A DNA stretch of 63,485 bases, filler included, from Kipferlia bialata (taxonomy: Eukaryota): the NCBI GenBank assembly GCA_003568945.1. It is 7 parts of 7 records of this genome, joined end to end, with 100 filler letters (N's around TTAATTAATTAA, not from the genome) between each part and the next. Parts side by side here need not be neighbours in the genome. Positions count along the whole stretch, not along the records: positions 57,589 to 60,596 come from BDIP01001079.1; 6 more parts are not named here. The stretch is one strand, 5' to 3'. Below, piece after piece: positions 5,599 through 62,844 of this stretch. The notes under the pieces are model-generated. The model made no database searches. It saw only the letters and a list, made by a program, of their open reading frames with translations, and had not been told where the DNA came from. Made by a program: the position numbers and the translations under genes. Position 1 is the stretch's first letter. The number at the start of each line of letters is the position of its first letter.

Positions 5599-5981
5599 GG
5601 ACTGAGAGAGTGAGAGACGATGTTCTTGTTGGTCGATGTTGCGCCTTCAATGTGTTTGTGTTTGTGTGTGATTGCCATTCTTGGCTGTTCTGAGTGGGTA
5701 TGTGTGTATGCGTGTGTATGTGATGCTTTGTATTGTTTCTGTTTGCGTGGTCTTTGTGTCAAGGAGATACAGCCTGTATTAACTGTATGGCCTCTCCTTG
5801 TGTATGCCTCCCTTTGGACATGTGTCCAGAGTGAATAGATGTCTTGCTTCTAGTTGTCTTATTGTGGGATCTCTCTATACACAGTCCTGGCACCTACGTC
5901 TATATCATGTATATCATAGCCTCTAGAGCATAGACACTGTCTATCTACTGTCTATTATTGCCCCAATAGCACAGACAGTAC

Positions 5982-6298
5982 CTATATGCTGTCTCCCACC
6001 ACCGTCTGTCTCTGTCTGACAGTGGTGGTCCCCTCCACCTCTCCCACCGTGATGCCCAGGTGTGTAGATACACCACTGTGCATGAGGGTGCTGGCAGGGT
6101 CCACATACCTAGGGGTGAGGGATATAGACATTAGTATATGGCATGTATACACTACACCCACCTTGCCAGCACTGCGAGTCCGTCTCTGTCGTCCACCAGT
6201 GGCCTGTCTGTGTCTAGAGAGACCAGGGCAAAGCCTGCCTGTCTGTAGAATGACATGACACTGGCAGGCAGCATGGAGGCTAGAGGCACACCTTGGGG

Positions 6299-6339
<41 letters not shown>

Positions 6340-6929
6340 CTTGAGCAAGTGAGTAGGCATATATATATATATACATATACAGGTGTATACGTACCCACTG
6401 CATCACTCATGCCGGACAGTCTGTCCAGGAGGGCATGGCCCAGACCCTGGCCTGACATCAGGGAGAGAGAGAGAGTCATTGCACTGCAGACTCCCACTAT
6501 CTACTAACCTCTCCTACTTCAATACCATATAGCATCACATAGATATAGATCCTAACCTCTCGCCCCACTGGCCACACACACACAGCACATGTACACGTAC
6601 TGGGAGCTCTTGATGTACTCGTTCCCATACACAATGTCCATCAGTCTAGACACCCCCTTGGCTGGGCTACCCAGTGCCTGAAGGGAGGCACGGAGGGTGC
6701 GCTCCAGAGATGTGAGGAGCCAGGGGGCACAGTAGAGAGCAGCTGCCACGGGGGGTGCCCTAGGGTGAACATAAGATTACATATATACAGTGACACGATA
6801 TGGATGAGTGAGCTGACTACCTCTTACTGCTGCCGTCTCTGATGACCAGGACGCCCCCGTATGCCGCAAAGGAGGATACAAGGGCAGTGGCTAGGGAGAA
6901 GGCCACTGACCTGGGGACAGGGGCCTGGG

Positions 6930-6968
<39 letters not shown>

Positions 6969-8298
6969 TATCTCCATATAGAGGGTAACTCCCCCTCTAC
7001 CTGTGGAGTGGTCTGACTAGGCTTGTGCTTGGACCCTCCCCTCTTGGAGGTGAGGGCAGAGAGAAGGGGGCCGGACAGGAAGAGAGAGCCTGCAGGGTGA
7101 GAGGGCCTCATGGGACCATATACACACTCTAATACACCAATATACCTAGTATGCTTGACACGACTGCTATGTCTGCGCTGGTGTATGGGTGGCAGTGCGT
7201 GGATGTCTGAATGCGAATGGGCTGGGGTGCGGCCATGATGCTCTGGTACACAGCCTGCACATCAACAAGACCCCCTACATGGGACACACACAGAGAGTCC
7301 CCGCCACCTGCCGCAAAGAGAGACTCGCCCAGCGTCTCACTCTCACTCTCACCCTGCTGCTGGCGTTGGGCATCTGCCTCCAGCTGACGCTCTCTCTCCA
7401 TCTCCCTCTCCCTTGCTGCCGGTGTGAATGCCGCCTGCTGCACCTGGCTGTCAGTACCAGTATCTATATACTATATCTATATATTGTATCTATTTACTAT
7501 CAACTGGTACTGCTACTTCTGTACCTTCCTATCCACCACCCGCTGCTCCCTCTCCCTGAGGGTATCCATGTCCGGCAAGGTCTGAGCAGAGAGCCTCTCC
7601 TTCTCTCTCCGCTGCACCCTCATCCGCTGCCTCTCCCTCTCCTCCTCTCCCTCCCAGAGAGATGCAGAGAGAGACTGCGTGGAAGAGACAGTCTCCTTGG
7701 CCTGGCGTCAGATAATGAATAGTGCCACTGTACTATATACAATATATAACAGATATGATTGTGCAGGCGGTACCTTTGTGAGGTATGGGGACTCGTATAT
7801 GGGCGATATGAAGTGGTTGGTGCTGTCCGTCTGGGGCACCCGTCTACCCTGCACACACTCTGTGTCTGCATCTATAGGGTCAGGACTGAAATGGTCGGGG
7901 GAGGCCACGCCCTCTGGTGAGCATGCCATGGCCCCCTCTGCCACACCACCTTGCTCAGTAGTGGCACCCCCCTGTCTATCCGCCTTGGTGTATGATGGGA
8001 ACCACACCAGCAGGGCCAGGCTCTGTGAGGACGGGTCCACCCCAGCGGCCTGCCCCACCTCCACACCCTCCCTCATACACACACCCTGAGTAGGTGGGTG
8101 GTTAGCACCCTCTGGGAGCATAGGCGGGGTTGCCAGACACACACTGAGGGGTCTGAACCCCATACCATATACGCAGTCACTCATGGCACCCACGGCATGG
8201 CAGACAACACCCTCGTGGTGGCCCAGCCTGCCCATGTGCCGCAAAACAGGGGTCAGCAGGGCAGACACAACACCCTGGGGGTAGACAATGTGGGTGGG

Positions 8299-8346
<48 letters not shown>

Positions 8347-9047
8347 CTGGTATGGGTCACATAGCAGCATGGGAATGGTGAGTGGCAGTGACAGGTTGGT
8401 ACTGACAGGGGTGTCGGCAAGGGCTAGGTATCTGAGGTAAAAGGGAGTTAAGACAATCAAGAATGAACAGGACTAGGTCTCCGGGAGTTAGAGAGTGGAT
8501 TGATACAGCCAGGAAGACACTCATACCTTCCCAGAATACTGGCTAGTGAGGGGTGTCTGAGTGAGGAGAGGGTGATGGCAGGCTCGGCCCTAGGTCTGGC
8601 GGCAACAAGGCCCATCACATCATTGTCCTGATGTTGGTATATATATTATGATGTCACTGATACTCATACTGCCACCATTGTCCTGATTGAATGAGAGGAG
8701 ATTAGACCTCCCTGGGAAGATTATGACATATCTGTGAAGGGGGGGGGGGAGAGGGAGAGAGAGATAGTGTATACCTTGTTCAGGGCCACATACACCAGCC
8801 CACTCCCAGGCCTCTCCATCAGCACCTGTACACAGTGTTCCCCCATCCACGCGGCACCGTCAGCAGACAGCGAGGGGGAGAGGGAGCTCATGGAGGAGCA
8901 TAGCGGGAGGCGCCTGGCAATGAAGCCTACAATGGAGGCCCTGGGCAGAAACGATGCCGGGATGACCCTGATCGACCCAGAGTAGTCAGTGGGCACACCT
9001 GAAGGGATATCGGCACCCAGGCTCCCGGGTGGAGCTCCACCGGTCAT
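5982..9047 (-). CDS. Multi-exon hypothetical protein
   Basis: ATG 9047 (MTGGAPPGSLGAD...VYVALNK|) joins canonically to GGLISSHSIRTMVA| and DNDVMGLVAARPRAEPAITLSSLRHPSLASILG|. Further GT-AG-bounded exons run to ...RQTVVGDSI-stop at 5982. No family recognised. Confidence 0.6.
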
Positions 9048-9219
9048 GCTAGGAGGCCCTGTTGATGCGGCCGGGGCTGGATCACGGTACTAAACGGAAC
9101 CGGACCCTGTACTGTAGATATATATCATAGACAGACGCTGAGGTCATCTCTCGGGTCTCTACTGCTGAAGCTGGTGGCCCATATCACAGAGACAAGCAAG
9201 TCACTTCGGCCTCCAGAGT

Positions 9220-12200
9220 ATGGAGGGGGTCTATTGCTTGGCAGTACCCATCATCATGCTGTTAGAGAAGCAGCAGAGAGACACTGTGTCTGCAGAACAT
9301 TTTGATTCCGATTCGGAATCAAAATGGTTGATGAGCATCATGTTTGATATTCTCAGATGCTCACCCACCTCTCTTCAAGCCTTCCTCTGGGCTGTATGTA
9401 TAGTTCACTACTTGGCGCTCACAGAGAATACATCTAGAGACACGAAGTATTCACAGAGCCTGTTCGTGTCCGGGTTGTTGCAGGTGAGTATATTATTATA
9501 CTACAACTGAGATATGTGTTGTTGATCATTCTGCCCTGACAGTATTTAGTGTCACTCAGGCTTCTCACTTTTATGACTCAAGCAGGTAGTGTGTTTCTGC
9601 TTACCTCTCTTGACTCCATTAACGCTCTCTAAGGGATGTGGAGTCCCTTCCCAATTGATACACTTATTGGTCCATACACATACACTGTTTGGTGCATATA
9701 ACTCTCTATTGCTTGTGTGTTGCTTCAAGTCATATATGTTGCCATTGTTCTAATATCAGGTGAAACCAGGGTAGCTCTGACATGGCTCCTGATGCAGATG
9801 TGCTTCCAGTGCTTGGATCCGATACAAGTAGTCAACAGGTTTGTGTTGCTGTGCCAATATAGAGTGGTGTATGTTGTGGAGTCACATATATATGTGCATT
9901 TGGATGTGTATATGTGTTAGTTGTGCTTGTGAGTAGCAGTACATGAATTCTTACTATTCTTACTATTCTTACCCCAGAAAGACTCTGCTATTGGCCACTT
10001 GACGATATGCCGGGAGAGACCTGACCTCCGTGACCCCCTAATCCGCTACATGGGCTCAGAGATCGCTAGGCTATGCACTGAGGTGGAGAGAGTGACCCTT
10101 CTTGACAGTGGCAAGTTCCAGGTTGTCCATGGAGATGTGCTTCCCCTACTGCCTGCTTCTACTGATACTTCTCCTTGCTGTGTGCCCTTCGTCCTCAGTG
10201 ATGTGGGACCATTCTCAGATGCCAAGCTGGTACTGGGTGATAGTCAGCTCAGGGCCCTCTTTGCACGCAGTGTGCGTGGGCTATATACCTTGCACAGGTC
10301 TGGTATTGTGCACAATGACATCCACCGCGGCAATATCATTGTGGTGCCCGATGAGACGGGATCTGCCTTCTTCCCAGTCTTCCTCGACTTTGAGGCCGCC
10401 TACATTGTACCCGGTCACTCCCTTTTAGAGGGGGCCAAACATGCCCTGCTGAGGGATATGTGTATAGATATGGAGTGTGAGGGTGACCCATTCAGCTGCG
10501 GTACCCTGCCTGAGCTGAGTGAGGCAACCTCTCAGTTCTATGGGGTGCTCACATACGCATCCCGAGACACTCACGCTGGGGTCAGAGACAGCATCCTCAA
10601 GGACCTGGAGGCTCTTGTCTACTCATTTGCCGTTGCAGCTGGGGCCAGGCTCCCTTGGGTTAAGGAGTGTGACTGTTCTGACCCAGACTACATGAGTGTA
10701 TACCAGATGAAGCTCTCTCTTGCTGCAGACGTTGTGAGGGGTATCGCCCCCGAGGGTTGGCCAGAGTGGCTGGTGGCTACCTACAGTGCCATGCTTTACT
10801 GCTCTGTGCCACTCGAGGGTACATTCCCTCTTGTAGACGGTGCTGAAATGACCCCTGAGGCCAAGATTGGGCACCTAGCCGATATGCAGTACGAGATTAT
10901 ATTGGAGTCTCTTGTGGAGGCAGATGGTGACGCAGTTGTCGTACCGCGTCTCTGCCCTCTGGTTTCTGGACCCAGCATAGAGACGGAGAGGTTGAAGCAG
11001 CCCCATCTGAGTATTGAACCTAGGTCTGTCACTGGTGAAGAAGAGGTCGTGGTTACTCTTGCCAGTAGTACTAGGGTGAGGGATGGAGATATGTCCGGCG
11101 TACCAGTGACGCGCCCTGCCACCACACCCACCTCTCTTGAGAGGCTCACGTCAATGATATGTGCCCAGTGCTTCAGCAGAGAGGAGGATCGTGCTTCAAG
11201 CGTTGCCTGCTCTAGACTGTCGGGGCATTCCCCTCTGTCCTACTTCCCCGGCCAGAGTCTCACCCTGTCCAACTGGTTTGTTCCTCACCAGACTAACACT
11301 GATGGCTGGATAGCTTCCGATACGGTGGCATTCAGGCCATGGGTGACAGTGCCCAATGCTAGTATCGCTGCAGCGGTATCCTTGGAGGCTCTTGGGGAGG
11401 ACGGTGATTATAGGGCCATGTCGCCCTACATAGAGCTTCCCAGTGTGACATACGATATGGATTCCATAGCAGTGGCGTGTCATGCAGACTCTATGGGGAG
11501 ACACACCTCCCTTTCTCAGCATCTTCTCATCGAGACAGTTGCTGTGCCATGCAATGATCGCCGACAAGTGCGTGCCCACCTGCGTTCTGTCGAGCAAAGA
11601 CTCTCTCTATCCAGAGAGAGGTACTGTTTCCGCATGGGAGAGGTGGAGAGGGTATCCGAGCCTGGGATGCAGATACTGAAGTATCTTCCGCTGAGTGCTG
11701 TCCTAAAGACAACGGCTGTGGTGGTGCTGGTAGGGTCTAGAACAGCAGTGGAAGCAGCCCGTAGACACTTGAGTGACGACCTCCACAACATATCTCAGCC
11801 TGGTCTGACAGAGTTAGCCTATCTTGGCCGTCTCTATGTGATGCACCTCGATATGAGCTCTCAGTGCATCGAGGAGACACCAGCATGCACACTGACCCTT
11901 ATGACAGAGTGTCTGGTACAGTCTCTGAGGTACATGCACGACACCCACCCACACTGCCGACTCCTGGGGTCTAATGAGTGGTACATCCAACAGAGTGAGG
12001 ATGGGACTGAGGAGGTGCTCCACATTACCCCAGGGTACATCACACTTGATGCTGAAGTGATGGACATCACTCTCAACACCATCAGTGACTGGGTCACCGC
12101 TCTTTCCCGGAGATTCGGTAGGGAGTCTATCCCCGTAAACGCACATGTGCGCCGTCTTAGGTGTGACTGGGATCTGATGAGGGATTATGGACCCTTTGGA

Positions 12201-12296
12201 CCCTCAGTGCCCCGTGCAGAGAGGGAGCAGAACCTTGACAAGGCCATGGCACTGCTACAGAGAGCCATCGATGGTTTGACTCAAGCTATACTCTAA
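9220..12296 (+). CDS. Atypical Ser/Thr protein kinase, CK1-like C-lobe, with a long unknown C-terminal region; final exon 9978-12296
   Basis: LYTLHRSGIVHNDIHRGNII (catalytic loop), FLDFEAA (DFG equivalent), GVLTYASRDTHAG...KDLEALVYSF...LPW (CK1-type GT.RYAS...DDLESLGY...LPW). Acceptor cttaccccag at 9977. The 5' exons from 9220 are uncertain. Confidence 0.75.
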
Positions 12297-12622: not shown

Positions 12623-12673
<51 letters not shown>

Positions 12674-12715
12674 CTAACCCCTCTCTCTCTCTATACATAT
12701 ACTCCTAACCTCTAG

Positions 12716-15700
12716 GTCCTGATGATGGCTGGCCTTGAGAACAAGCCCGTTGTGTTCCTGTTCAGCGACACCCAGCTGGTGATGCCCTCCATGCTTGAGG
12801 ACATATCAACCATTCTGAACACAGGTCAGTTATATATATATACACATGGATATATATATGGATGGATCACATATATGTGATTCAGCTGGTCATGCCATCG
12901 ATGCTCGAGGACATATCAACCATTTTGAACACCGGTTAGTTAGTAGAGCTAGGCATCTCTGTCTCTCTATGTTTCTTCTCTCTCTTTCTCCCTCCCTCCC
13001 TCTGTCTCTCTCTCTCTCTACACCCTTAATCACAGGTGATATCCCCAACCTCTATGCCTCTGAGGAGCTTGACCAGATTTACACTGCCATGAGAGGTGTC
13101 TGTCAGGAGAAGGGTCTAGCAACAAACAAGATGGTCAGGTATAACGGTCTTTGTGCTAAGTGTTCTATTGCATTGACATGTTAAGGTTAATCTAACCACG
13201 TAGGTTCCAGCAGTACCTGCTCCGTATCTCCCAGAACCTGCACGTGGTGCTGGCCATGTCCCCCATGGGAGGTAGGATTGTATATTAATGAGATATATAT
13301 ATATATATACTCCCATCTGAGACATGTATGTAGTCATTCCGTTTTCTATATATGTGTGTGTGAGTTTATGTGTCTTGCCCTCACCCTCAGGTGCCTTCAG
13401 GGAGAGACTGAGGCTGTTCCCCTCCCTTGTCAACTGCTGCACACTCATCTGGTTCACAGCTTGGTCCAGGTATATATATGTATATATATATATATATATA
13501 TCATGTGAAAATACCCGGCACCTATAGAAGGCCCTCTTCTCTCTACCCCCCACCCCCCACCTTCTCTCTATATATATGTATGTATACCCTCACCCCCCAG
13601 GGAGGCTCTCTTCACCGTTGCCATGGAGGCCCTCCTTGACACCGATCTGCCCAATGTCAAGAAGGACAGCCCAGAGCACAGGGCCATCTGCGAGCAGGTA
13701 ATTACATGTGTATATACAGTGTATTAATATATACTATACAATGTATGTGTATATGTCAAGAAGGACAGTCCAGAGCACAGGGCCATCTGTGAGTTGGTAC
13801 TCTTGATTGCACTCATACGACTCTCGTATGCACTGTTCTCACCCCCAGGTTGCCGAGATGTGCGTGTACCTCCACCAGTCCGTGGAGAAGATGAGCGAGA
13901 AGTTCCAGGTACAAGGGTCTTATCCCTCTCTCTCTCTCTCTGTCTGTTTCTCTTGCTAGCCCCTTTAACAACAGGATGAGCTGCAGCGCTCCAACCACGT
14001 CACCCCCACCTCCTACCTCGAGCTCATCAATGCCTTCAAGAAGCTGCTGGTGAGTATCAGATAGATGCTACACTAAAACTAAGTGTTCATGTACTCTCTT
14101 CTCCTCTGTTCTTCACCTTCTTTTCATCCCTGCTACCCCCTTATTCTAGGCCAAGCAGCAGCTGAGCGTAGTTACCAACAAGAGGAGGTTCCAAGTGGGT
14201 CTCGAGAAGCTGGTGTCAACAGCTGTCATGGTACGCAAGTATCTCTCTCTCTCTCCCTCTACCCCCCTTTTCTCACCCTAGGTCGAGGAGATGGGCGTGG
14301 CTCTGGTCGAGCTGAAGCCTCACCTGATCGAGACATCCAAGCAGGTGGGTGGCAACTATATATACAATTTCATATGTTCAATTTCACTAGGATTATATTC
14401 TCTTACATCCCTCTTCCTACACCCTTTACTCACCCCCAGGTTGAGGAGTCCATGGTGCAGATTGCAGCAGACACCAAGGTGAGTGTAGATAGAGTCAGAA
14501 TCGAGATGGAGTGTTGTATGTCATTCATACACATATCTTCTATGTTTACAAATACCTAGGACGCCGATGCCACCCGTGCCATAGTTCTCTCTCTCTCTTT
14601 CTCTCGATATTATATTTGTATACACACATATAAAGTAGACTGATACCTAGGACGCCGATGCCACCCGTGCCATCGTTGAGGTCGAGGAGGCAGCAGCATC
14701 AACCAAGGCACAGGAGTGCCAGGCAATTGCAGGTATCGACATCAACTATACATATATGTATATGTCGGTAAATTCATAACGCTACTATGGTTAAAGTGTC
14801 AACCAAGGCCCAGGAGTGCCAGGCAATTGCAGGTACAGTGATAAATACACATATATAATAATAGTAGTGTATTGTATTTTGTTCTCACCCTCCAGAGGAT
14901 GCCGAGCGTGACCTTGCCGAGGCCCTCCCCGCCCTTGCCTCAGCTGTGGCATCACTCAAGCAGCTCAATGTGACAGATCTGACTGAGATGGCTAGGTAAT
15001 TGTTGTATTCATATACACACATCTATGTCAATATAGAGGGAGAGAGAGTAGCTCAATGTGACAGCTCTGACTGAGATGGCTAGGTATATATTGATGTGCA
15101 TATATATATAGAGTGAGAGAGAGACCTCACAGAGATGGCTACTTCTGTGGTGCATGACTTACCCGCAGGTACATCTCCCCTCCCCTTGCTGTCAAGCAGG
15201 TCCTGGAGGCTGTGTGCGTCATGTTCCAGGTATGGGATAAGTATATATCCAAGTACCTATTAGACTGAAGCTATATATATACATTCTCTTCAACTAGTAT
15301 CTCACTATCATTGTTTGTCTCATGTTCCAGGTATGGGAAAAGTGTTGGAGATAATGTAGTTATATGTATCTTAGTGTACATGTATACATACAACCCCTCT
15401 TACCTGTAGATCAAGGCCAAGCGTGTCGAGGATAAGGACAGGCCTGGCAAGCACGTCGAGGACTACTGGGAGCCAGCCAGGAAGATGCTCGGTACGTTAT
15501 TGCTCTCTCTCTCTATAAATACATATATATGTGTATGTATATATATATGCATACCTTACCCCAGGCGACCCCCGTGGTCTCCTTAACAACCTGTTCAAGT
15601 ATGACAAGGACCACATCAAGGAGTCAATCATCACAAAGGTACGAGGCCCCACTGTATATCTAAATATCTATGCATTTATACTGATCCAATAGCAATACTT

Positions 15701-15860
15701 CTAACTCCCCAGATCCAGAAGTACATCAACGACCCCGAGTTCAAGCCCGAGATCATTGCCAAGAAGAGTGTGGCTGCCACCTCACTCTGTATGTGGGTAC
15801 GTGCATGTGTATCTCTATTTTCATTTGAATATATATGTACCTTTGAACCAAAGTCAGTGT

Positions 15861-15909
<49 letters not shown>

Positions 15910-18900
15910 GCCAGGTCCGTGCCATGAACCTCTACCACCACGTGGCCAAGAACGTGGAGCCTAAGAGACAGAAGTACGTAGTTTTACTATAATCTCCATC
16001 TCCCTATTTCTCTTATAGTTGTATGTGTAGATATATGTATATATACAATACTCAACCCAGGCTTGCTGCTGCCCAGGCCGAGCTTGCTGAGACCAAGGCA
16101 TCTCTCGATGAGAGCCAGGCACGTTACACTCCTCTCTCTTTCTCTCTCTCTCTCTCTTATGTTCCACCCTTATCTTGACTTACACCAGGCCCAGCTTAAG
16201 GAGGTCGAGGACAAGATTGCCACCCTGCAGGCTGGGTTTGAGGAGCAGACCCAGAAGAAGCAGGATCTGGCCACCCAGGTATGTGTACATACTCACATTA
16301 GATATTGATACACCCAGATTATCAGATTATATATACGTACTGACGTTTAGATTAATATTGATAAACACATCATTATGTCTGCGTCTCTCTTTCATCACTC
16401 ACCATCCAGGTTGCAGATACCGAGACCAGGCTGGACAGGGCCAACAGGTAATATACATTTCGTATTTATGTGCACATTCATTATATATAGAGTATATATA
16501 TAGAGTACTATAGTATTTGTATCCGTACCTTCTAGTGTGTAATAAATATATAATAATATACATCTAACCCCCTAGGCTGATGGGCGCCCTTGGCTCTGAG
16601 CGCACCAGGTGGGAGGAGTCTGTGGCCAGGCTGATAGAGGAGGAGAAGAACCTGGTCGGAGACATTGTCTTTGCAACAGGTGAGAATATAGGAGTCTGAT
16701 TGGATAGATTGCTTCTCCTCCTTATATGTGTCTCTCTCTCTTTCTCCTTCTACACCCTTTTACCCCAGGTGCCATTGCCTACCAGGGTGCCTTCACCGCC
16801 GACTACCGCACTGCCCTGAACACCATGTGGCAGGAGAAGCTTGGGGAGATTGGCCTGCCCCACTCCATCTACGAGGGGGGACTCAGTGTCAACAAGTGAG
16901 TGGATATAGTGTGGTATATATGATATATATACATGTGTATATACTCATCTCAGGATCCTTGCCGACCCTGTGCAGGAGAGAGAGTGGATCCTGAACGGTC
17001 TGCCCTCTGACAACCACTCTATTGAGAACGGAGTGTTCCTCCAGAACTCATCAAGATGGCCACTCATGATTGATCCTCAGGTACTTTTGATAGTATTGTT
17101 ACTGATGTTGCGCTCACATAGCGCTGCATGTATCCACATATAGCGCTATGTCTCTCTCACCCCAGGGCCAGGCCAACAAGTGGGTCAAGCACACGGAGAG
17201 AGAGAACAACCTCGATGTGGTCAAGCTGACTGATGATGACTTCCTCAGGACACTCGAGAACGATATCAGGTATAGCTATATATATATATGTGTATAAGTA
17301 TTACATAGCATGTGTATTATACATCCATTGTATTCTATTGACACTAGGTTCGGTAAGCCCGTCCTGATTGAGAATGTGCAGACCGAGCTGGACCCTGCCC
17401 TGGAGCCCATCCTGCTCAAGCAGACATTCAAGCAGGTGCTCTCTCTCTCTCTCTCTCTCTCTCCCCCTCTACACCCTTTATTCACTGCAGGGTGCCTCTG
17501 TTGTCATCAGACTCGGAGACCAGGTCATCCCCTACAACTCCAGCTTCAGGCTGTACCTCACCACCAAGCTGCCCAACCCGTCCTACAGCCCAGAGACTGC
17601 AGTCAAGGTATTCTATGGTGTACTCTCATACACTCTATCTTGATCCCCTTGTCCCTTCTCACTGTCAGGTGCAGCTTCTGAACTTTGCCATCACCCCTGG
17701 TGGACTGGAGGACCAGCTGCTGGGTATGTATACTATAAGTGTCCGATACTAACTAAATCTCACAATCTCTTTTGTATGTAGTCTATATCCCACCCCCAGG
17801 CATTGTTGTGCAGAAGGAGAGGCCTGATCTGGAGGCCCAGAAGAACGAGATTGTGCAGAACAACGCTAGGATGAAGGTGTGTATATCACAACTCTCTCTC
17901 TCTCTCTCTCTCTCGTACTCTAGTCCCTTATTGTCAGGCCGAGCTGAAGGCTGTTGAGGACAAGATCCTGCAGCTGCTGTCCGAGTCTGAGGGAGACATC
18001 CTGGCCGATGAGACCCTCATCGACACACTCTCACAGTCCAAGACAACCAGTACAGACATTACAGCAGAGGGTATGTGTATATATATATATATACCGCCCC
18101 ATTACTTGCCTTCACTCTTTCTCCCTAACTATATGCAGATATATATATAAACGCATTTATGGCTCGCTCACCCCCAGTGGCCAAGGCCGAGGAGACTGAG
18201 AAGATGATCGATGTCACCAGATCAGGGTACAAGCCAGGTACGACTTTCTCTCTCTCTCTCTTCCTATCCACACAATATTGATTGTTGCCTTGTCCATGTC
18301 TCCTGTGGCAGTCTCTCCCTCCCCTCGATCTCCCCCTCTATCCCTCTTATCCCCAGTTGCCGTCCGTGCCTCATGTCTGTTCTTTGTTCTCAACGACATG
18401 CAGCTTGTGGACCCAATGTACCAGTACTCCCTGCAGTGGTTCATATCACTCTTCGGCCAGGTATCTTGCAGTATCTATTGTTTAGTTACACTTTCTTGTG
18501 ATGTCTTACTTATCCCAGTCCATATCCGATGCGCCAGAGTCCACCAAGCTGTCCGAGAGACTATACAACCTCAACGACTTCTTCACATACAACCTCTACA
18601 CCACCGTGTGCAGGTATGTAAAACATACATATATATATATTGTAAAGGAATTTTTGATCGACCTTGTTGATTTGTGTCTGTTCTGATGTCCAGGTCTCTG
18701 TTTGAGCAGCACAAGCTCCTCTTTGCTCTGCTCCTGGCACTCAGGATCAGACAGAGGGCAGGTATGACATATGTTGATGTCAATGTATATATGTATTTAT
18801 ATTAATTTATGTTCTTGTACTCTACTTACCCTCCCTTACCTCTCCAGGCAACCTCGACGCTGCTCTGTACAGGTTCCTCCTGGTGGGATCCACATCCTCG

Positions 18901-20652
18901 TCGCCCAGGTACATATACTGCATGTACTTAGTTCACTATACATCTTTCATAGTTATTGGCATGTGGTTATGTGTCATTGTAAATACAATTCTATGTGTTG
19001 CCGTCTCACTCCAGACTTCCCAAGCCAGCCACCGCCGCTGGATGGCTGTCTGACAAGATGTGGCTCGACATCAACGACCTGGACCAGCTAGGTATCTTTC
19101 TCTATGCTCACTCTCTCTCTCTCTCCCTCTCTATAACCCCAGGTGCCTTCAGAGGCATAGCCGCTTCCTTTGACTCTGTGGAGGGACTCACCATCTGGAG
19201 GTCATACTTTGACAGCAACGACCCGCACCTGCACGCTCTGCCAGAGGTATGTATTCTCTCTCTCTCTATGAATACATGTTCTTACAATGACCCATATGTA
19301 CTCTGTATATCCCTATATGTGCTCCGTATGTGTCTATATCTCACCCCCAGCCCTTCGAGTCCAGCCTCGACTCCTTCCAGAGGCTGCTGCCACTCAGGTG
19401 AGGAGATAGCATGTATCTCTCTCGTTCTCTCTCTCTATTTATGTATGTATATGTGCGTGTGTGTGTGTACACATATACTCCTCACCCCCAGGTGCCTCAG
19501 ACCAGACAAGGTTGAGGACTACGTCATAGTTCTCTCTCTCTATGTCTTTCTCTCTATATATATATAGATGTGTGTGTGTGTACTTATGGATATTGTTCAC
19601 CCCAGGTGTCTGAGGCCCGACAAGGTCGAGGACTACGTCATTGAGTTTGTCACCAAGGACCTCGACGCACGTTTCGTTGAGCCACCCACATTCGATATGG
19701 CACTCTCCTACCGGTACGGTCTATCTCTCTCTATATTTCAATATCTCAATTTCCCCCAGTGACTCTAACTTTCTCTGTTAGTTATAGTTTGCATATCTGA
19801 CTTCCAGCGACTCTAACAACGTCACCCCTCTTGTGTTCGTCCTTAGCTCCGGTGCCGATCCAGCATCTGCCCTTGTGAAGTTCGCCCAGGTACATACTGC
19901 ATACATATTCTTTCGTGTAGAATCGTTATCGCGAAACTTAACCTTCAGGACAGCAGAATGGGCTCCAAGCTGTTCTCCATCTCTCTTGGACAGGGACAGG
20001 GAGGCCCTGCCACCAAGATGATCCAGGTACTGCCGCCTGTCTCTCTCTCTCTCTTCAATGACGCGTACTGGACTGCATACATTTCATGTATATGCAAATA
20101 TTACTATTATTATTATTATGTATATCTTACCCCTTAGGACGGTGCTGAGCACGGACACTGGGTGCTGCTCCAGAACTGTCACCTGGCTCTGTCCTGGATG
20201 TCAGGTACAGTCTCTCCCTCCCCCCACCCCTTCGACCCCTCACTATCCCATGCTACAACCCTATTTACACATTATGCCATTATATATTCATACTCACCCC
20301 TAGAGTTGGAGCGCCTGGTTGAGAACCTCCAGGGTGACCCATCCTCGGTGCACAGGGACTTCAGGTACTGTAGTATATATATGTATATTAGTACATATTC
20401 ACAAGCACTTCAGATACTATTACTCTCGCTTTCCTCTCTCCACTTGTGTACATATTGTTCCCACCCCCCAGGCTGTGGCTCACCTCGATGCCCTCCCCCA
20501 AGTTCCCAGTCTCAGTCCTCCAGGTACTATCTCTCTCTATCTCTCTATATCTGTATGTATATTAGTAGTTCTTGCGGTCCTATACATACCCATCCTAACC
20601 CCCTAGAACAGTGTCAAGATGACCAACCCTCTCTCTCTCTCTCTCTCTCTCT

Positions 20653-20692
<40 letters not shown>

Positions 20693-22678
20693 TCTAACCC
20701 CCTAGAACAGTGTCAAGATGACCAACGAGCCCCCCCGTGGACTCAGGGCCAACCTCATCAGAAGCTACAAGGTACAGCGATGTATATGTGTGTGTATATG
20801 TGTGGCTATATGATCTATTCTCTCTCTGCTATGCTCATCAGGAGCTACAAGGTATAGTGTCTCTATGACATACTATCCTCACTCCCTCTCTCTCTCTCCT
20901 GTTCTCACCCCTAGGGTTACGATGACCGGTTCCTCGACGAGACATGTGTCAAGCAGGTGGGATTTGTGTATACGATTGTATTGTGTGTCCTATATTCATA
21001 TATTACCAGCATTCTTTTTATTTCTCTCTTTATCTCTTCCCCTTCCCCCCTTCTCACTGTCAGACGGAGTACAAGAAGATCCTCTACGGTCTGTCTGTGT
21101 TCCATGCCATTGTGGTCGAGAGAAAGAGATACGGTGCACTGGGTACGGTGTAATGTTACTTCTCTGTCTTATTATGTCTGGTAATACTTCTTCTAATCTC
21201 TAACCTCAGGTTTCAACATCCCCTACGAGTTCACCACCGGTGACCTTGACGTTTGCATCAGGTATATATATATACACATTTGTTAATATTGTCTTTGGGA
21301 GGGTAGTGTCGCATAGATCAATGGTTTCATCAGCCTCTCATTAACCTCTCATTTTCTCTGCTCTTTTGTCATTAACGTCTCCTTAACCCCCCAGACAGCT
21401 CACCCTCCTGTTGGAGAAGTACGAGGAGATTCCATTCTCCGTCATCAGGTTCCTCGTAGGTAGGGGGAAAGGGTCCAGTAATTCAAAAGAGAATGGTGTA
21501 CTATTCTCTGTTGACATAGCATCGTGTGAATAGTATCTTTGATTATTCCAATGCCAGGCCAGATCAACTACTAATCTTATGATTCATCTATTCTGATATA
21601 AATGTATATATATATATATATGTAAATCACCATTCTAACGATCCAGGCCAGATCAACTACGGAGGCAGGGTGACCGATGACCACGACAGAGTGACCCTGC
21701 TCACCATCATCGATGACTATGTCAACGATGGGTGTCTGGAGGAGGGGTACTCCTTCACACCGGACAAGAGCATCCAGCAGCTGCCTGCCAACGACCAGAG
21801 GTATATACATCTATATCAATTGTTTACTATACATCTAACCCCCCCAGGTCCTACCTTGAGACCATCAAGCAGATGCCCATAAATATACTAGTTGTGTATG
21901 TATAATAATTAATACATATTTACATTTAATAGTCTAACCCCAGGTCCTACCTGGAGACCATCAAGCAGATGCCCATAAATATACTAGTTGTATATTATAT
22001 ATATATATATATACATCTAATAGTCTAACCGTCCAGGTCCTACCTTGAGACCATCAAGCAGATGCCCATGACACCCTCCCCAGAGGCATTTGGGTTCCAC
22101 CCCAACGCTGCCATTTCATCCAGGTATAGTGTATATATATACATACTTGAGTGTGCATATAGAGTATGTATACTCTGACTCCTAGGAATGCCGAGACCAC
22201 CCATGGTGTATATAGTATAGTGTATGTATACATCATACACATATTCAATATTGTATATAGTGTATATATACATCCTCTGACTCCTAGGAATGCCGAGACC
22301 ACCCAGCTCTCTCTCTCTCTCTCTCTCTCTCTCCCCCCCCCAGTAGTACAGTATGTATAGTACACATATTCATTGTCTATATACTCTAACCCCTAGGAAT
22401 GCAGAGACCACCCAGCTCTTCTCCATCCTGCTGTCCCTCCAGCCCAGACAGAGCTCTGGCGGTGGTATCTCAAGGTTAGTATGTCGGGCTCCTCTCTTTC
22501 TCTCTCTCTCTCCATATATAGGTATTGCCTTACCTTAGGGAGGACACCATCATGCAGACTGCCGAGTCTCTACTGGAGTCCCTACCTGAGCAGTACGACA
22601 TCCAGACAATCGAGGGGCAGTACCCCACAAAGTGAGTGGTACTATTGTTCTCTCTATTTCCCTCTCTATATATACATA

Positions 22679-22726
<48 letters not shown>

Positions 22727-24266
22727 TTAGCTACAAGGAGTCCATGAACACTGTGCTTGTGCAGGAGTGCATCAGATACAACAAGCTCCTCTCCGTCATC
22801 AGGGCCTCCTTGATCAACATCATCAAGGCCGTCAAGGGTATCGTCATCATGAGTGCTGAGCTCGAGCAGGTATGATAAGCATGTGTACTAATAGTCTATT
22901 ATTATGAATGCGTATATATACAGTGTTGAGGTGCAGTGATGTAGATTTTGGGCAGAAATTGTGGAGACTGTTTCTTGTACCCCACCCTTCCAACCCCTAG
23001 GTGTCTGACGCTCTGTTCAACAACACTGTGCCTGGTCTGTGGGCCAAGAGTGCATACCCATCCCTCAAGAGCCTGTCTACATGGTACGGCTAGTATATAC
23101 ATTCACCACTATTGTATATATATGTTTGCAACTATAGTATATACTCTAACCCTAGGTTCGTTGACCTCCGTGCCCGTTGTGACTTCATCACCCAGTGGGT
23201 CAGGGACGGACCCCCCAAGGTCTTCTGGATCAGCGGACTCTTCTTCCCACAGGTACATAGTCTCTCTCTCTCTACACTGTGTATTATGCCCCTTCCCTAC
23301 TCTCTCTCTCCCTTACTAACACCAGGCCTTCCTCACCGGTACCCTCCAGAACTTCGCCAGACGCCATGTCGTGCCCATCGACACAGTCTCCTTCTCCTTC
23401 CATGTATGTGGTTATGATGCTTATGATTCTTATGTTTCTATGTATGTGGTTTCTATAGCTCTCTAGATTCTTCAGTTCCAAGTTTTTAACTAAATTTACT
23501 TCAGGTCCTTGATGAGCAGTGTCTAGGTCCTAGTATAACTTCATTTATTACTATTGAGTTTCATAATATATTGACTTCAGGTCCTTGACGAGCATGGTCT
23601 AGAGGGAGAGCCAGATGCGGCACCTGTCGATGGATGCTATGTCAGGGGACTGTACATCGAGGGGTGCAGATGGGACTGGGACCACCACGTGCTGGCAGAC
23701 AGTAGACCTAAGGTATGTATACTATCGTATCTCTTCTGGTTTAACAACTCCTTGTGGACTACTTTAGTGTGTGTAATTGTATTACTGGTCATCCACACTA
23801 TATTCTCTCACTCTCTCTTTCTACGAATTCAATCCCTAACCATCAGGAGCTCTACACGGCCATGCCCATCATCCACCTGCTGCCAGAGGCCAACCACAAG
23901 CCACAGGTACCATTCTACACAAACAGTAAATTACTATATACATTACATGAATTATATAGGAATCCCTCTCCAGTGTGTTTGCATACTCTTACTCACCTCT
24001 CAGCCTGGCACCTACAGTTGCCCTGTGTACAGAACCCTGACCAGAGCCGGTACCCTATCCACAACAGGTTAGTGCATATGTATACATACAAAGATACTGC
24101 AAGTAACAGTCGCAACCTCATGAGTTTACGGTAGAATTATGATTTCTGCTCCCTCTCACCTCCAGGTCACTCCACCAACTTCATGCTCATGATCGACATT
24201 CCCTCCAGCCGCAAGCAGGCTGTGTGGGTCAAGTCGGGTGTGGCCATGTTCGCAGCACTCTCCTAA
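12716..24266 (+). CDS. DNAH1: Axonemal inner-arm dynein heavy chain, DNAH1-like: AAA4, stalk/MTBD, AAA5, AAA6 and C-terminus (5' partial, about 60 exons)
   Basis: Spliced peptides [134 protein letters not shown] and [24 protein letters not shown]...[11 protein letters not shown](24264-24266). The dynein call is secure; the DNAH1 subtype is from recalled similarity. Confidence 0.95.
21835..22425 (+). repeat. Two triplicated acceptor + exon-start units inside dynein introns
   Basis: cag|gtcctacct(t/g)gagaccatcaagcagatgccc occurs three times (about 21846, 21942, 22036). ctag|gaatgc(c/a)gagaccaccca occurs three times (about 22183, 22285, 22393). Confidence 0.95.
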
Positions 24267-25430: not shown

Positions 25431-25932
25431 ACAGGGGGCGGTGCATGCTCCCTCCACCCATGGGGTGTGCAGGGGTGTAGGCCGTACTGTCCTGCCTTGT
25501 CCGTATGGCATCCCCTGCTCTTTGTCAGGCCGTGGTACACCCCCCGGCACTGCCCATGTCATCTATCTTTATTTAGCCGATCTTGCGTCGCGTGTGGGTG
25601 TATATACATATAGTTCTTGTGTGCCTGCCTCCCACCTGATACTGCGTTATACGGGTGGCAGGCCAGTGTAGTTTGTGTCTGTTGGGTATCCTCCCCCAGG
25701 CTGTACCCCTATCGATTAGGGCGCCGGGGTTTCAGGGCCTTGTGATGTGATAAATTTCCGTTGTTGTTGTTGTCTTCTGGAGGAGTGAATGGGTGTCTTG
25801 AAGTGTTAGAGTCGGCTCTGAGTCAGAGGCTCCGAGTCGCTCAACCACTCGAGGCTCTACACCCTTTTCTTCTGTGTTTGCGACTGTTTGTGGATCTAGA
25901 TATGCCTCTATCTAGGGCACCGGAGAGAGAGT

Positions 25933-26649
25933 ATGGACAGTGCTGGTGATGATGCCCCCCTCTTCGGAGGGCAGGGTGCTACTGGCGGGTATGACTCCGC
26001 TGTGACGTCCCTTGACGACCTGATGGCTGCTGTGGGAGGCGTTGTGAGTGAGGATGTGGCCAGACAGTCAGACAAGGTGGCAGAGACCATCCAGGCACCT
26101 AGGCCGGTGGTGTCCGGACCAGCAGCTCGCAGGGCACGCCAGGCAGCCACCAGGGAGAAGGCCGACCGTGATGTGTCCCGGTGGGCAGGATACGTGCACA
26201 CCAATGATATGAAGGTAGATTGGGTTACTATACGCACCATCTCAGTGGAGTGGTTGTCTCATACCGGTAGTTGCACGATTTGGGTCTGTGGTATGGTATA
26301 TTAGCGTATAGCACGGTATATCTCTGTTACGTCTGGTGTTGCAGTATCACTTATGTATCCATACCTCATACGCCCACCCTCAGAAGAACCACGTCTATGG
26401 AGACTCCACCGCCAAAGCAGGACACAGCCTTGCATTCGCTACACAGATGAGGTGGGTATGACGTGCGCGCGTGGATATATATATACATAGACGTTGTGTG
26501 ACTCAGGTGCTGTCTATCGTATCTCTCCATCCTGACTCTGTCTGACCCCTAGGACAGAGACATCCCTGCAGTCTGAGATCGCAGCTGTGCTGGCAGGGGC
26601 TGGCCTTGTCCAGAACGGGAGGCCCCAGCTCACAGAGGAGGAGTCCAAG
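25933..26649 (+). CDS. UTP14: U3 snoRNA-associated protein 14 (UTP14)-like, first three exons (3' truncated)
   Basis: TIQAPRPVVSGPAARRARQAATREKADRDVSRWAGYVHTN / ...TSLQSEIAAVLAGAGLVQNGRPQLTEEESK| resembles the UTP14 N-terminal block. I could not find the expected downstream KIKSK exon. Confidence 0.65.
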
Positions 26650-26992
26650 GTGGGTGTCACTGGGTTGGTTGTTGTTATAAGCAGTGTCATCACATTGTTA
26701 TTCGATCCGGTCTCTCTCTCTGCCACATCTTTATATATATGACATTGGCCCATGTACCCCCCCCCCCCCCCCCCCCCACCCCCCCAACTCTCACTCGGTA
26801 AACAATATACACATACTAGTGGATCCACATATATATTGAGTGGACCAGCCTTGGTAATACAGATTTACCCCAACGTGTATAATATCAGACAACGATAAAT
26901 GTGCATACGTACTCACATACACTTATATACACAGGGGGAGATGGAAAGAGTACAGAAAATACCCAAATACAAGAGAGATACAAGTGACCCAC

Positions 26993-57588: not shown

Positions 57589-57897
57589 CCGAATTCTCTG
57601 ACCGTGACCCTCATCACGAAGTGAGGGTTTGGTATCACCGGGTATTCTTCCTGTTCGGTATGTCCGGGTATGTTCTGGACCACTTGGGGGATTCTTATGC
57701 GAGTATAATTTTACGAGAGTATCTACCGAGATATGGAAGCAGTTAGAGTCCTTCATAGCCTGATAGAACAATTAGAGGTGTTTGATTATCACTCTGATAG
57801 ATGATTCGAATCGCAAATTGAATCAATGACGCGAAACTGACTCGAACAGCCAAGAAGTCTTTCTCCCTCTTTCACCAAGTGGGCGGAAGGTGCCTCA

Positions 57898-59398
57898 ATG
57901 TACATGCTACGGCAGGAACCCGACTTGGTTCCATACACCTTGGTGGAACTGGGTAGAGTGGCTGGTGTCGCTACTAACCTAGGCAGGCCAGGAGAGACTG
58001 TCATCTACAGAGAGAGGGAGGGGGACCCAACAGCAGATGAGGAGGAGAGGGAGAGAGAGAGAGAGGAGGAGAGAGAGCGTGTCAGGGACTATAACCACTG
58101 CATCACAGTCAGTGATGAGCCTTGCCCCAGGTTTGTACATATGTAATGACAGTCTCTCTCACACGCACTCGCTCTCTTTGTCTAATATCCCTCTGAGTCA
58201 CGTACCTGTCTGTGCTGTAACCCCCCCCCCCCCACACACACACACCTTTGTGAATGGATACCTAGACCTGGCCTGTATCAACACTCTGTCTCTCTCTCCC
58301 TCTACTTCTGCCTGTGTGGGTGTCCAGTTTGTATATAGGATCAGTTTACTATTCCAGCTGCAGTTTACCCTGAGATTCACCCTTCTCTTACCCTCTCCCT
58401 CTCCCCCCCCTCTCCCCTACAGCTATTCATTCACCCCACTCCATCTCTCTCTGTAAACCTTCGGCCTATACATCTTTCTGTTCAACCAGAGAATCCCCCC
58501 CCCCCCTCTCTATATATATGTATACAACATGAAACACTAACCATTCCCTTACTCTTAGACCAGCTTTAGTAGACATGGAGGTCTGTCTCTTCCCCCCCCC
58601 CCCCCCTCTCCTCTGTATATATTGTGTGTACTAGAGCTGGAGCTTTTACAATTAACGTTGACACCCAACATTTCACTTTCTTCAATTCTCTGTCTCTCTC
58701 AATATATGTTACATAAAACACTATTGTCTCACTCCTAGACCAGCTACTGTTGATCTTGACATCCGTCTCTTTACTCACACTCCCTCAGACGGAGAGGGAG
58801 AGAGAGAGGAAGAGAGAGTGCTAGTGCCTATTGAGTTCAAAGCAGGTACTATTATATATGTATTACAAAAGAGTCAATAAGGCAGCTGTCTCTTCCACAC
58901 TACCTCTCTCTCTCTGTTAGTCTCTCACCCTCTAGACAGGGACACCCTCTCCCTGGATGGCATCAGTGTGACACAGACATACACTCTCTATACTTCACAT
59001 ATACCCTCTCTCTCTTTCATAGTCTTATCCATAGACAGGAACACCCTCTCCCTGGATGGCATCAGTGTCACACATATACACTCTCTTCTTCACATATACC
59101 CCCCTCTCTNNNNNNNNNNNNNNNNNNNNNNNNNNNNNNNNNNNNNNCATATACCCCCCTCTCTTTCATAGTCTTATCCCTAGACAGGGACACCCTCTCC
59201 CTGGATGGCATCAGTGTGTGTATGTACATCCACTCTCTTATTCACTCATACCCTCTCTCTCTTTCATAGTCTTATCCCTAGACAGGGACACCCTCTCCCT
59301 CGATGGCATCAGACTCAACCACGGGATGGCACTGCCTATCCTGGACGCAGGTAGATATGCACATACACATACTATTATATATGCATAGGAATTATGTT

Positions 59399-59429
<31 letters not shown>

Positions 59430-60200
59430 CATAATTACGGGATGGCGCTGCCTATATTGGTCGCAGGTAGATATACAAATTCACACACAAATACATGTAC
59501 TCATATCTGCTTGGCGGAGATCTACCTCCTCTCTTTACTCCCAAAGGATATGTATGCATTCACATTCTGATTCTTCTTATCCCAGGTCTCCCCGGTCTTA
59601 TGGAGGGAGAGAGGTGTCTCCTATACGGTGGCATGGAGAGTGTGCTGCCCAAGGCTGGTACGGTTCCAGCATTAAGGTAGATAGATAGATCTATGGGTAC
59701 ATTTGTATAGTGTATAGTGTATACATATATATGGGTGTGTATCTCCTGTATGGTGGCATGGAGAGTATTCTACCCAAGGCCGGTACAGTTCCTGCTCTGA
59801 GGTTGATATATACATATTCATGTAGGGTTCATACAGATATATTCTATTCATATTTTTATACTCTCCATTTCTCTTATCCTTATGACTATACGTGTATTGG
59901 CACAGAACACACCTATATGACACCAGATACCTCTTTACCCCTCACACCCTGCTCGCCCCCAAGGACAGACCCCCCCTCTCTCTTCCCATGTCTAACCCTT
60001 TAGGCACCTGTACCCTCTCCTTCACACCCTCTTGTCTGCCAAGGACAGACTCTGTACATTCATAGTACTGGATGTTACACTCTACAGGTATGTATCGCAG
60101 AGTTCCTACTGTTGCCTATCCCTTCACCTCTCCTACGATGCGTCATTGCACCCTTTAACCACCAGATGGACCCACATTGAGCACGACTACCCAAGCACAG
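57898..60200 (+). CDS. Multi-exon hypothetical protein, possibly kelch/beta-propeller-like (3' partial; 38-N gap at 59110-59147)
   Basis: MYMLRQEPDL... / DRDTLSLDGIRLNHGMALPILDA / GLPGLMEGERCLLYGGMESVLPK... / TFIVLDVTLYR|WTHIE has the kelch-like pattern H...LLYGG...LD....W. Confidence 0.5.
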
Positions 60201-60333
60201 GTATCTGCATTCCTCTCTCTCGCTCTCTCTATATATGTATACATATAACTACGTACACACATATACACATACATACACATATGTAGATGACGACTACCCA
60301 AGCACAGGTATCTGGAATTTTTCATCCCACTAT

Positions 60334-60380
<47 letters not shown>

Positions 60381-60596
60381 TATATCGATTGTCTTTCAAT
60401 TTGTTAACCTCTTGCCACTCTAAGCACACGTATTTCCTTCTCTCTCTCTCTCCACGCCTCCCTCCCTATCTACGTATTTTTGAATTGGTTATATTCTCTC
60501 TATAGCCTCTATCTCCCGTCATCCCTCTCCCAGGCCATAGTGAGTTGACATTTGTTTGCCCCCCCCCCCCCCCCCCCCCCCCCTTTTTCTTCCTTT

Positions 60597-60710: not shown

Positions 60711-62844
60711 GAGAGAGCAGTGTCCATGTCCTCAGAGACCTGGGGGTGAGGTATGGAATAGACTTATATAGAGAGAAAATACAAAATAGCAATATACTAC
60801 AGACCTCGGCCACAACAACCTCCTCCTGATCCTCCTCCCTCTCTCTCTCTCTCTTTCTCTATACACATATATATATGTGTATATACGTATACCTGACTTC
60901 ATACCTTCTCCTCCTGAGCAATATGCTCCTGCTGCCTCTCTCTTTCTCTCTCTCTGTATACACAAAATAGTATATATATGCATACCTCCTCCTCCTGAGC
61001 ATTCTGCTCCTCCTGCTGCCTCAGAAGCTCCACCTCCTAACAGTGAGAACAATGAGAACAATAGACTTCCATTGACTGAAATTTAGATTCAAATACTATT
61101 GCTATATTGATATTGACCCAAATATCTATATACATTCATATGAAGAATGAAATAATTAGTACATGTATATGTGCTCTGTACCTCAGGTGGGATTGTGTCA
61201 GGGGCAGTCTCATCCTGGGGTGAAATATATATATATACGAACCATAATTTATATCTATATATATACATACATATAAATGATGAATATTATAAGTGTCTGG
61301 GGCAGTCTCATCCTGGTGTGAAAGGGTGTAGGGAGGGACATAATATACACCTGAGATAGTCCCATGACAATACAGGAAACAATATTGAATAATAATTGGT
61401 GGTTCTATCGCAATTTGAACATATGTGTAATGCATTAGTAAAACGGTAATTGTGTACATAATAGTACCTCAGTCTCGATTGGCAGTGCCTCTCCCTCCTC
61501 CTCCTTGGGGACATCAGCAGCCTCCCTAGAGTGAGTGTGGCATGCCACACACAATTCAGAGTGTATGCCAAAGCCATGTCACGCACAATTGAGAGAGTAT
61601 TTGTATGGATGTGTACCTGGGGTAGTGCATGAGCAGGTTGGTCACGATGGCAGAGGAGAGTCCGAAGAGCTCGGAGAGGACAGACACGGAGAGAGAGCCG
61701 TTGGGGCCGCCGCCTACAGTAAGACATGACAAATACAGGGAGGGGAGACAGAGAGAGAGAGAGAGAGAGTACCTAGCATGGGGTGGTCTGGGTCGAACTC
61801 CTCGGCCTCTCTCTCCTTGTCTCCCTCTCCCTCTGCTGCGGCTAGGGCATCCTGGGAGCGGCGGTGCTTGCTGGGATGAGCCATACTACAATACACATAC
61901 ATATACATATACACAAGACAGATACAATATCCTCTCGTCCTGGGAGCGGCGGTGCTTGCTGGAATAAGCAAGGGATACCCACACAGGGAAATAATATATA
62001 CACACACATATACATACCCTTAGTTATGCGAACCCACAATATCCAAAGAGTAATACTACAATCATCAAGAATATTTGTATACCTCAGCACCAGCCCCCTG
62101 GCCATCCTGAACAGTTGGGCACTAATATGTAACCATATAATAATATATATGTAGGTATAATTGTATATCTATATTAGTATACAATTGTATACCTGAGCAC
62201 CAGCCCCCTGCCCATCCTGAAGAGGTGTGCACTAATATATATATACATACACATATACATATACAGATATCTATCTATATATACATATATATATATATAT
62301 ATATACCTTAGGACTAATCCCCTGGCCATCCTGAAGAGCTGTGCACTAATATACATAACCATATATATACAGATGTCTATCAATATATACATATATATAT
62401 ATATATATACCTTAGAACTAATCCCCTGGCCATCCTGAACAGCTGGGCACTACAATCTATAACCATATATATACACACACATATATTAATATATATATTC
62501 ATATATTTACAGAATTACACACCTGAGCACCAGCCCCCTGGCCATCCTGAACAGCTGTGCACTGCAGGCCTGGCCACTCCTGGAGATGGGGTAGTCGCGC
62601 TGGGGTGAGATAGAGAGTATATATATGTAACTACAATATGTACTATACATATAGAAGCGGGCATAGTGGCAGGGAGCCGAGTTTACGCAAGCACATGTAC
62701 TTGTATATACCTTGTGTAGGTTGAGGAATGGTGACACTGGGCACAGGGCACACATATAGATATAATAATACTATAAAACTACTAATACATATATATCATA
62801 TGTATACACTATATATATATATATATATATACACCTTGTGTAGC

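Follow-up and report, generated by a model that had tools for sequence, protein, structure and literature searches.

Allele-like partial copies of exon ends recur in the introns of Kipferlia bialata

Results

A working exon of KIPB_004849 is followed by a partial copy of itself

The window, a 63,485-nt stretch of Kipferlia bialata DNA made up of pieces joined by N-linkers, includes in its piece 57589-60596 the locus of interest, a part of the gene KIPB_004849. The first exon matches the NCBI entry at 100%, the exon chain agrees with the gene model, and the NCBI protein carries the peptide LLYGGMESVLPKAGTVPAL, encoded by the first of the two copies described here. At the focal exon, the NCBI protein and the spliced contig both confirm the reading frame, which is open across six exons. 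The C-terminal part of the protein, encoded outside piece 57589-60596, is cyclophilin-like (PDB E 5e-10; Pfam E 0.007, under the cut-off). An FKBP-like look of the focal exon peptide is unsupported, as Pfam and PDB match only the cyclophilin-like C-terminus.

Most of the focal exon (59 of the 91 nt of 59586-59676) recurs as an "echo" in the intron that follows (Table 1). Direct comparison of the exon end, 59618-59676, with the echo, 59743-59801, reveals 11 mismatches and no indels over 59 nt, with a GT directly 3' of both copies and 66 nt between exon end and echo. Specifically, eight codons differ synonymously (exon/echo: CTA/CTG, TAC/TAT, CTG/CTA, GCT/GCC, ACG/ACA, CCA/CCT, GCA/GCT, and TTA/CTG), and a single codon, GTG/ATT, exchanges valine for isoleucine; in terms of bases, there are 10 silent changes and 1 replacement change over ~17 silent and ~40 replacement sites. 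The coordinates, length, lack of indels, retained donor, and spacing reported in an earlier note on this DNA are exact, and its tally of eight synonymous codons and one V/I change corresponds to the base changes counted here. Inspection of the sequence just upstream of the echo at 59743 finds no AG and no branch motif. Splicing from the donor of the echo would insert 125 nt with an immediate stop. There is no in-register GT..AG pair around the echo; a GC..AG pair in register could splice in its last 23 nt.

Table 1. Coordinates of the exons, introns, and echoes discussed in the text (positions in the window)
Feature	Position	Strand	Evidence
16 echoes in dynein heavy chain gene	12883..23526	+	scan; Pfam confirms dynein
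Acceptor-side echo of exon 58739, strongly diverged, with conservative changes (PATVDLDIRLF vs PALVDMEVCLF)	58559..58595	+	scan
Three acceptor-side echoes of exon 59282 (starts 58936, 59035, 59184)	58936..59214	+	scan
Donor-side echo of exon 59282-59350 (4 silent + 2 replacement)	59433..59468	+	scan
Working exon of KIPB_004849, 91 nt	59586..59676	+	X2 joins to both neighbours; peptide in NCBI protein
Used donor GT and 66-nt AT-rich spacer, without branch site or AG	59677..59742	+	sequence
Whole spliced intron, 327 nt	59677..60003	+	X2 joint, shifted by shared AG; GT-AG check
Echo: 59-nt exon-end copy plus unused GT	59743..59803	+	sequence; same unitig as exon
Second, more diverged, gapped echo, of next exon's start (LLHTLLSAKDR vs ..PHTLLAPKDR)	59927..59970	+	scan; same intron as focal echo
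Next working exon	60004..60087	+	X2, frame, NCBI protein
Four donor-side echoes of exon 62599-62523, another gene	62083..62566	-	scan

The focal echo is present in the DNA and is spliced out

Two runs of one sample cover the locus: X1 (DNA) and X2 (spliced contigs, RNA). A single X1 unitig (record 7, 950 nt) covers 59439-60250 with no other letters and no gaps, and its depth is full (473.5, as compared with 489.4 for its unique neighbour); X1 is possibly the source data of the assembly and is not an independent sample. Because this unitig crosses both copies and their junctions, an assembler mis-join is excluded. Record 12 of X2 joins 59280-59347, 59583-59674, 60002-60084, and 60163-60202, using the first copy and skipping the echo. 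X2 depth is zero in the bin that contains the echo, 59710-59810; the contigs drop rare forms and zero cover alone is no proof, and the evidence that the echo is unused lies in the X2 joint across it. Together, the full-depth unitig over both copies and the X2 joint indicate that the echo is real and intronic. The DNA data place it in the chromosome and, it appears, in both homologues; the form represented by the contigs has it spliced out.

No alternative letters are present over either copy in X1 or X2, and X1 has only one substitution row in 3008 nt, at a collapsed repeat, indicating that the strain is nearly homozygous here. One-base length variants occur in X1 contigs at 58402-58403 and 58917-58918, in low-complexity tracts, one of them at about half depth; these are possibly heterozygous. 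Two metagenome scans revealed no second Kipferlia strain: with patterns from the focal protein, 88 stretches matched and none was confirmed, and with dynein, the top segment among 80 retained of 220 relatives was 59% identical and none was Kipferlia-like. The ATT-CTA version of the exon, raised by the earlier note as a possible mRNA form, does not appear in the X2 contigs, which drop rare forms and show only the first copy, and a haplotype carrying it as the exon was found neither in X1 nor in the two metagenome scans. The view that the echo is not a mutually exclusive exon holds: it has no acceptor and is spliced out in X2.

At this locus an intact competing donor is ignored: the donor at 59677 is used, although the donor of the echo, at 59802, is nearer the acceptor. 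This hints that splice sites are defined across the exon or by AT-rich spacers, which may guide site choice here as they do in plants.

Echoes occur in about a third of the introns analysed

Every count given here refers to this window, across which a search for close direct repeats yielded 155 pairs. Gene models were built with a self-trained script and then curated by hand to open frames, with RNA support for KIPB_004849 only; echoes mislead gene finders, and the script took several of them into gene models. The main set comprises seven echo-bearing genes, chosen for having repeats, with 156 exons and 149 introns. To detect echoes, exon ends were aligned ungapped to the neighbouring intron at a score of at least 14; rows with a score below 14, overlapping duplicates, and rows with fewer than 9 coding nt were dropped, and the trimmed count keeps 89 of 91 echoes.

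Scores of at least 14 were obtained for 69 of 298 true pairs of exon end and neighbouring intron and for 9 of 2384 controls pairing an exon with a foreign intron (best control score, 17), so the echoes are not chance matches. The seven genes contain 91 echoes (49 donor-side, 42 acceptor-side), spread over 56 of their 149 introns, and median intron length is 242 nt with an echo versus 97 nt without. Four further genes (1200-9100, 25900-26650) have two matches in 25 introns, giving 58 of 174 introns with echoes overall, about a third, with a density that is patchy across genes. Fifteen of the 91 echoes show no difference from their exon. The focal echo is one clear example of this window-wide pattern.

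The window also contains a coding repeat of ~38 codons with at least eight diverged copies (60-960, minus strand) and, within an intron-rich genome, an intronless open frame of 771 codons (9981-12293, plus strand), which may be kinase-like.

The copied units are partial and carry one splice site

Among the 87 echoes that reach an exon boundary, 82 keep the GT or AG, a proportion inflated by inclusion of the flank in detection. The unit from exon to nearest echo measures 58-180 nt, with a mode near 100 nt and none shorter (n = 69); the 58-nt floor and ~100-nt mode may reflect either the length of a synthesis tract or selection on the spacing of competing sites. Spacers measure 33-173 nt, approaching the length of whole introns. 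Nearest echoes cover at most 0.81 of their exon by the strict measure, with a median of ~0.3-0.4 (n = 69). On the donor side, identity in the intronic portion of the unit is only 0.5-0.6 over nt 3-10 and falls to ~0.3-0.45 beyond, as compared with ~0.3 for unrelated donors. An in-register GT..AG pair is present for only 5 of the 91 echoes, and one of these pairs covers most of its echo; an in-register GC..AG pair is present for 14 of the 91. Unit lengths have no frame preference (35/25/31 over the three frames). Microhomology at the junctions was not significant (distal 4-mer intron-likeness -0.62 versus -0.76, p 0.11, n = 82).

Several introns hold more than one echo, and in several arrays the echoes agree with each other and the exon is the odd one. 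In particular, all three echoes of exon 59282 (58936/59035/59184) have CTG where the exon has CTC. A 38-N assembly gap, 59110-59147, lies inside this array, and X1 has doubled depth and a joint there, making the copy number of the array uncertain. In the array at 62083-62566, silent variants form a mosaic: 6 of 10 informative site pairs show all four gametes, and three sites have three states. The four-gamete pattern, seen in this one array only, could come from conversion among copies. Older-looking echoes, with conservative changes and codon-sized gaps, are present at 47238-47204 (versus exon 47126, minus strand), 59927-59970, and 58559-58595; an example of such a peptide pair is RLDSVFWQRVQSD versus RMNTFWQRVQSD.

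The dynein heavy chain gene extends over 12623-24266 on the plus strand, where 60 exons encode the C-terminal 1655 aa; one of its introns starts with GC (16119). Its echoes include 12883-12934, with 6 silent and 0 replacement changes, and 19492-19527, with 5 silent and 0 replacement changes, and have a pN/pS of 0.15 untrimmed, and of 0.06 and 0.03 trimmed.

Silent changes between exon and echo exceed a neutral expectation

As the null, we took a dead copy beside a constrained exon. Here, pN/pS is 0.5 and the silent share is near 0.42, because silent sites change on both sides and replacement sites change in the echo only. Untrimmed, the comparison of exons with echoes yields 164.5 silent and 116.5 replacement differences (share 0.585, pN/pS 0.25, p 1e-8); with the overshoot at the far end trimmed, it yields 110.7 and 53.3 (share 0.675, pN/pS 0.17, p 2e-11). 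The half of the match adjoining the splice site has 82.2 silent and 36.8 replacement differences, and differences at codon positions 1, 2, and 3 number 63, 43, and 175. The bias persists when each exon end contributes a single echo (p 8e-7 untrimmed, 2e-9 trimmed), on both donor and acceptor sides, and with the focal echo left out (p 1e-7). It is strongest in dynein (19 silent, 4 replacement), and two of the seven genes are near the null (untrimmed ratios 0.47 and 0.42). Null data sets simulated through the same detection (kappa 2-4, AT bias 1-3) gave shares of 0.38-0.49, and 0 of 240 reached the observed silent share. Reaching the observed shares under this model would require the silent sites of the exon to change ~3-6 times faster than the echo does.

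The bias also appears between echoes, where both copies are unused. After trimming, echo pairs differ by 18 silent and 11 replacement changes (p 1e-4 against a neutral null of 0.27; p 0.03 against a lenient serial-copy null of 0.43); untrimmed, they differ by 33 and 29 (p 0.06, lenient null). Echoes have drifted slightly toward A/T (59:40 at silent and 24:12 at replacement sites, p 0.07 each), which indicates that part of the difference between exon and echo is decay.

The mean silent difference over all echoes is 0.23, and replacement sites differ by ~4%. The focal echo, taken alone against the exon-only null, gives P = 0.002-0.005, a silent bias that selection on the exon would not produce by itself and that supports the earlier note's reading; the set of 91 gives a far stronger result. 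The same note's description of the copy as "orthologue-level" was overstated: the focal echo had been picked as the cleanest, and its 10 of 17 silent sites lie in the upper tail of the set (P ~0.002-0.008 per echo, 55 echoes of at least 25 nt). The focal echo alone would fail correction for the number of echoes, and the evidence is the set. A raw fit of the distribution of divergences is uniform-looking. A single fixed distance to the donor is disfavoured, as 60 of 60 calibrated simulations were more uniform than the observed data; exponential ages are rejected only in the untrimmed data (0 of 60 simulations), the trimmed data giving 12-14 of 60.

Discussion

Origin of the echoes

The echo is unlikely to be spliced in and complete duplicate exons were not seen, so the simplest source of the silent differences is a diverged working copy from another lineage. 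We think it reasonably likely that exon and echo represent two diverged alleles, or homeologues, joined in tandem by aborted recombinational repair. In a cell with two diverged homologues, strand invasion would be possible only in exons, which alone would be alike enough. A broken end would invade the homologue within an exon, synthesis would proceed for ~100 nt, across the splice site and into the non-matching intron, and the released end, failing to re-anneal, would be end-joined, leaving exon end and splice site present twice. Duplicates with both splice sites, or contained entirely within an exon, would harm the mRNA and disappear; duplicates carrying one splice site would survive. The silent changes would have accumulated during a period in which each version served as a working exon in its own lineage, the echo would have decayed little since, and the locus would later have become homozygous. 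Either the exon or the echo could be the imported version, and sex would leave the same picture as a homeologue since lost or as DNA taken up from related cells. In a variant that these data do not separate from this route, an identical duplicate would form first, and the exon or the echo would then be overwritten by conversion from a diverged allele; by either route, the silent differences would stem from a diverged working copy. The proposal of an old allele in the earlier note stands in part: an allele-like origin is the best explanation, inferred rather than observed, because neither X1 nor the metagenome scans yielded the donor allele.

Two further processes were considered and rejected. 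The first, rejected by argument, is that the echo comes under selection through gene conversion with its exon: a silent divergence of 0.23 calls for conversion at a rate near the mutation rate, at which selection could not act on the echo, and such conversion would make pN and pS equal. The second, frequent loss of the DNA between the two repeats, would erase echoes long before they diverged, and no deletion joint of this kind is present among the 15 of 29 X1 joints listed.

Low pN would be explained directly if echoes replaced the exon end in minority transcripts, through unusual splicing or in another life stage, with purifying selection on both copies. The retained GT or AG of 82 of 87 echoes (a figure inflated by the detection flank) and the GC..AG pairs (14 of 91), one of which could include the last 23 nt of the focal echo, are compatible with such hidden use, as are contigs that drop rare forms and an RNA comparison made for KIPB_004849 only. 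However, in-register GT..AG pairs accompany only 5 of 91 echoes, unit lengths have no frame preference (35/25/31), and in X2 the focal echo has zero depth and the exon carries none of the echo's letters; we regard hidden use as unlikely. The simplest model is ordinary tandem duplication by slippage or between sister chromatids, with a neutral echo and constraint on the exon alone. It fits the 15 of 91 echoes identical to their exon, the two genes near the expected ratio untrimmed, and the mild A/T drift, and probably accounts for some echoes. As a general account it is very unlikely, since it predicts silent shares of 0.38-0.49 rather than 0.585 and 0.675, a level that 0 of 240 simulations reached, and cannot yield a silent bias between two echoes.

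Silent divergence could also arise without alleles if the pairs had once been complete mutually exclusive exons that diverged under selection before one member lost a splice site, and spacers of 33-173 nt, near whole-intron length, would suit this history. Complete pairs should then outnumber truncated pairs that have decayed little, but coverage reaches at most 0.81, with a median of ~0.3-0.4; curation removed repeated mini-exons, and a rare complete pair may have escaped. We accordingly give a past as paired exons a very small chance. Another explanation that dispenses with alleles is that silent sites in working exons mutate several-fold faster than the intronic echo: a 3-6-fold difference in rate reproduces the shares, and the exon is the odd one in several arrays. 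Against this, the intronic stretch of each unit has diverged strongly, indicating that intronic DNA is not protected, and changes private to echoes are likewise mostly silent, which leaves a faster exon rate highly improbable. Mis-assembly, in which two haplotypes have been placed in tandem, might be suspected from a fragmented short-read assembly and units of ~100 nt, about one read long. The separately built X1 unitig crosses both copies and their junctions at full depth with no difference, and makes this explanation exceedingly improbable.

Relation to known duplications

Tandem genomic duplication is known as a source of introns, and includes small duplications that span an exon-intron junction (PMC3443670). 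Like those junction duplications, the echoes are intragenic, head-to-tail copies of an exon part with its splice site that are spliced out; unlike intron gain by tandem duplication as presented there, they create no new intron, each lying within an intron already present and bringing a single splice site that goes unused (PMC3443670). In the spliced contig of X2, the original ends of the intron are joined rather than the donor-first/acceptor-second combination by which intron gain is recognised. Moreover, known junction duplications start identical, whereas the K. bialata copies differ like alleles, in 58 of 174 introns. Mutually exclusive duplicated exons are tandem copies with low dN/dS; the echoes differ from them in being partial, with one splice site, and the focal echo is missing from the spliced contig.

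Aborted SDSA or BIR repair finished by end joining yields tandem duplications. The echoes resemble the predicted product of such one-ended repair, in which everything between the break and the point where synthesis stops is present in two copies. Duplications of this kind have been described for sister or engineered templates, mostly with larger units; here, the units are ~100 nt and recurrent, and the putative template is a homologue ~23% diverged at silent sites. In Schizophyllum commune, silent diversity reaches 0.20 and crossovers fall mainly in exons (PMC4209137, PMC4576712). K. bialata resembles S. commune in a silent difference of ~0.2 (population diversity in S. commune, exon-echo difference in K. 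bialata) and, under the proposed route, in exchange confined to exons; it differs in that the abstracts of those studies report ordinary crossovers and not partial exon copies in introns (PMC4209137, PMC4576712). A literature search, mostly outside subscription journals, found no description of allele-like exon copies in introns, and "duplicat" is absent from the main texts of the genome paper (PMC5874029) and of a paper on fornicate introns (PMC6679479). Junction-spanning duplications and repair-made duplications are known kinds; the search turned up no case of allele-like copies in a third of introns.

Implications for Kipferlia and the fornicates

Published work is relevant to the proposed repair route. 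The K. bialata genome has 124,912 GU-AG introns, and its k-mer spectrum shows two peaks, taken to indicate diploidy (PMC5874029). Metamonads lack NHEJ, with Ku and DNA-PKcs missing; their alternative end joining is complete in some species and partial in others, and, in a statement made at group level, all examined fornicates have lost Rad51A and kept two Dmc1 paralogues (PMC8516963). DMC1 tolerates mismatches in recombination (PMC7809202, PMC11514202). The introns of Kipferlia might form a genome-wide archive of the alleles of other lineages, laid down through Dmc1-only, NHEJ-less repair in a hyperdiverse outcrossing population, an idea that we hold with somewhat more doubt than confidence. 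Extrapolated from 58 of 174 to 124,912 introns, this tentative reading would imply fossil allele fragments on the order of tens of thousands.

K. bialata serves as an intron-rich, free-living reference for the fornicates and is a relative of Giardia. Outcrossing in fornicates and related groups, both its existence and its frequency, has long been under debate. For annotation, the finding means that echoes can enter gene models wrongly; for splicing, it means that the spliceosome ignores intact competing splice sites ~100 nt away, the upstream donor winning at the focal locus. If the archive reading is true, the echoes would be a main engine of intron growth, by a route tied to repair without Ku and Rad51A, and would point to repeated outcrossing in a hyperdiverse population with a silent diversity of ~0.2 or more. 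A single genome would then suffice to read the diversity of the population, the selection acting on each exon (pN/pS), and past recombination.
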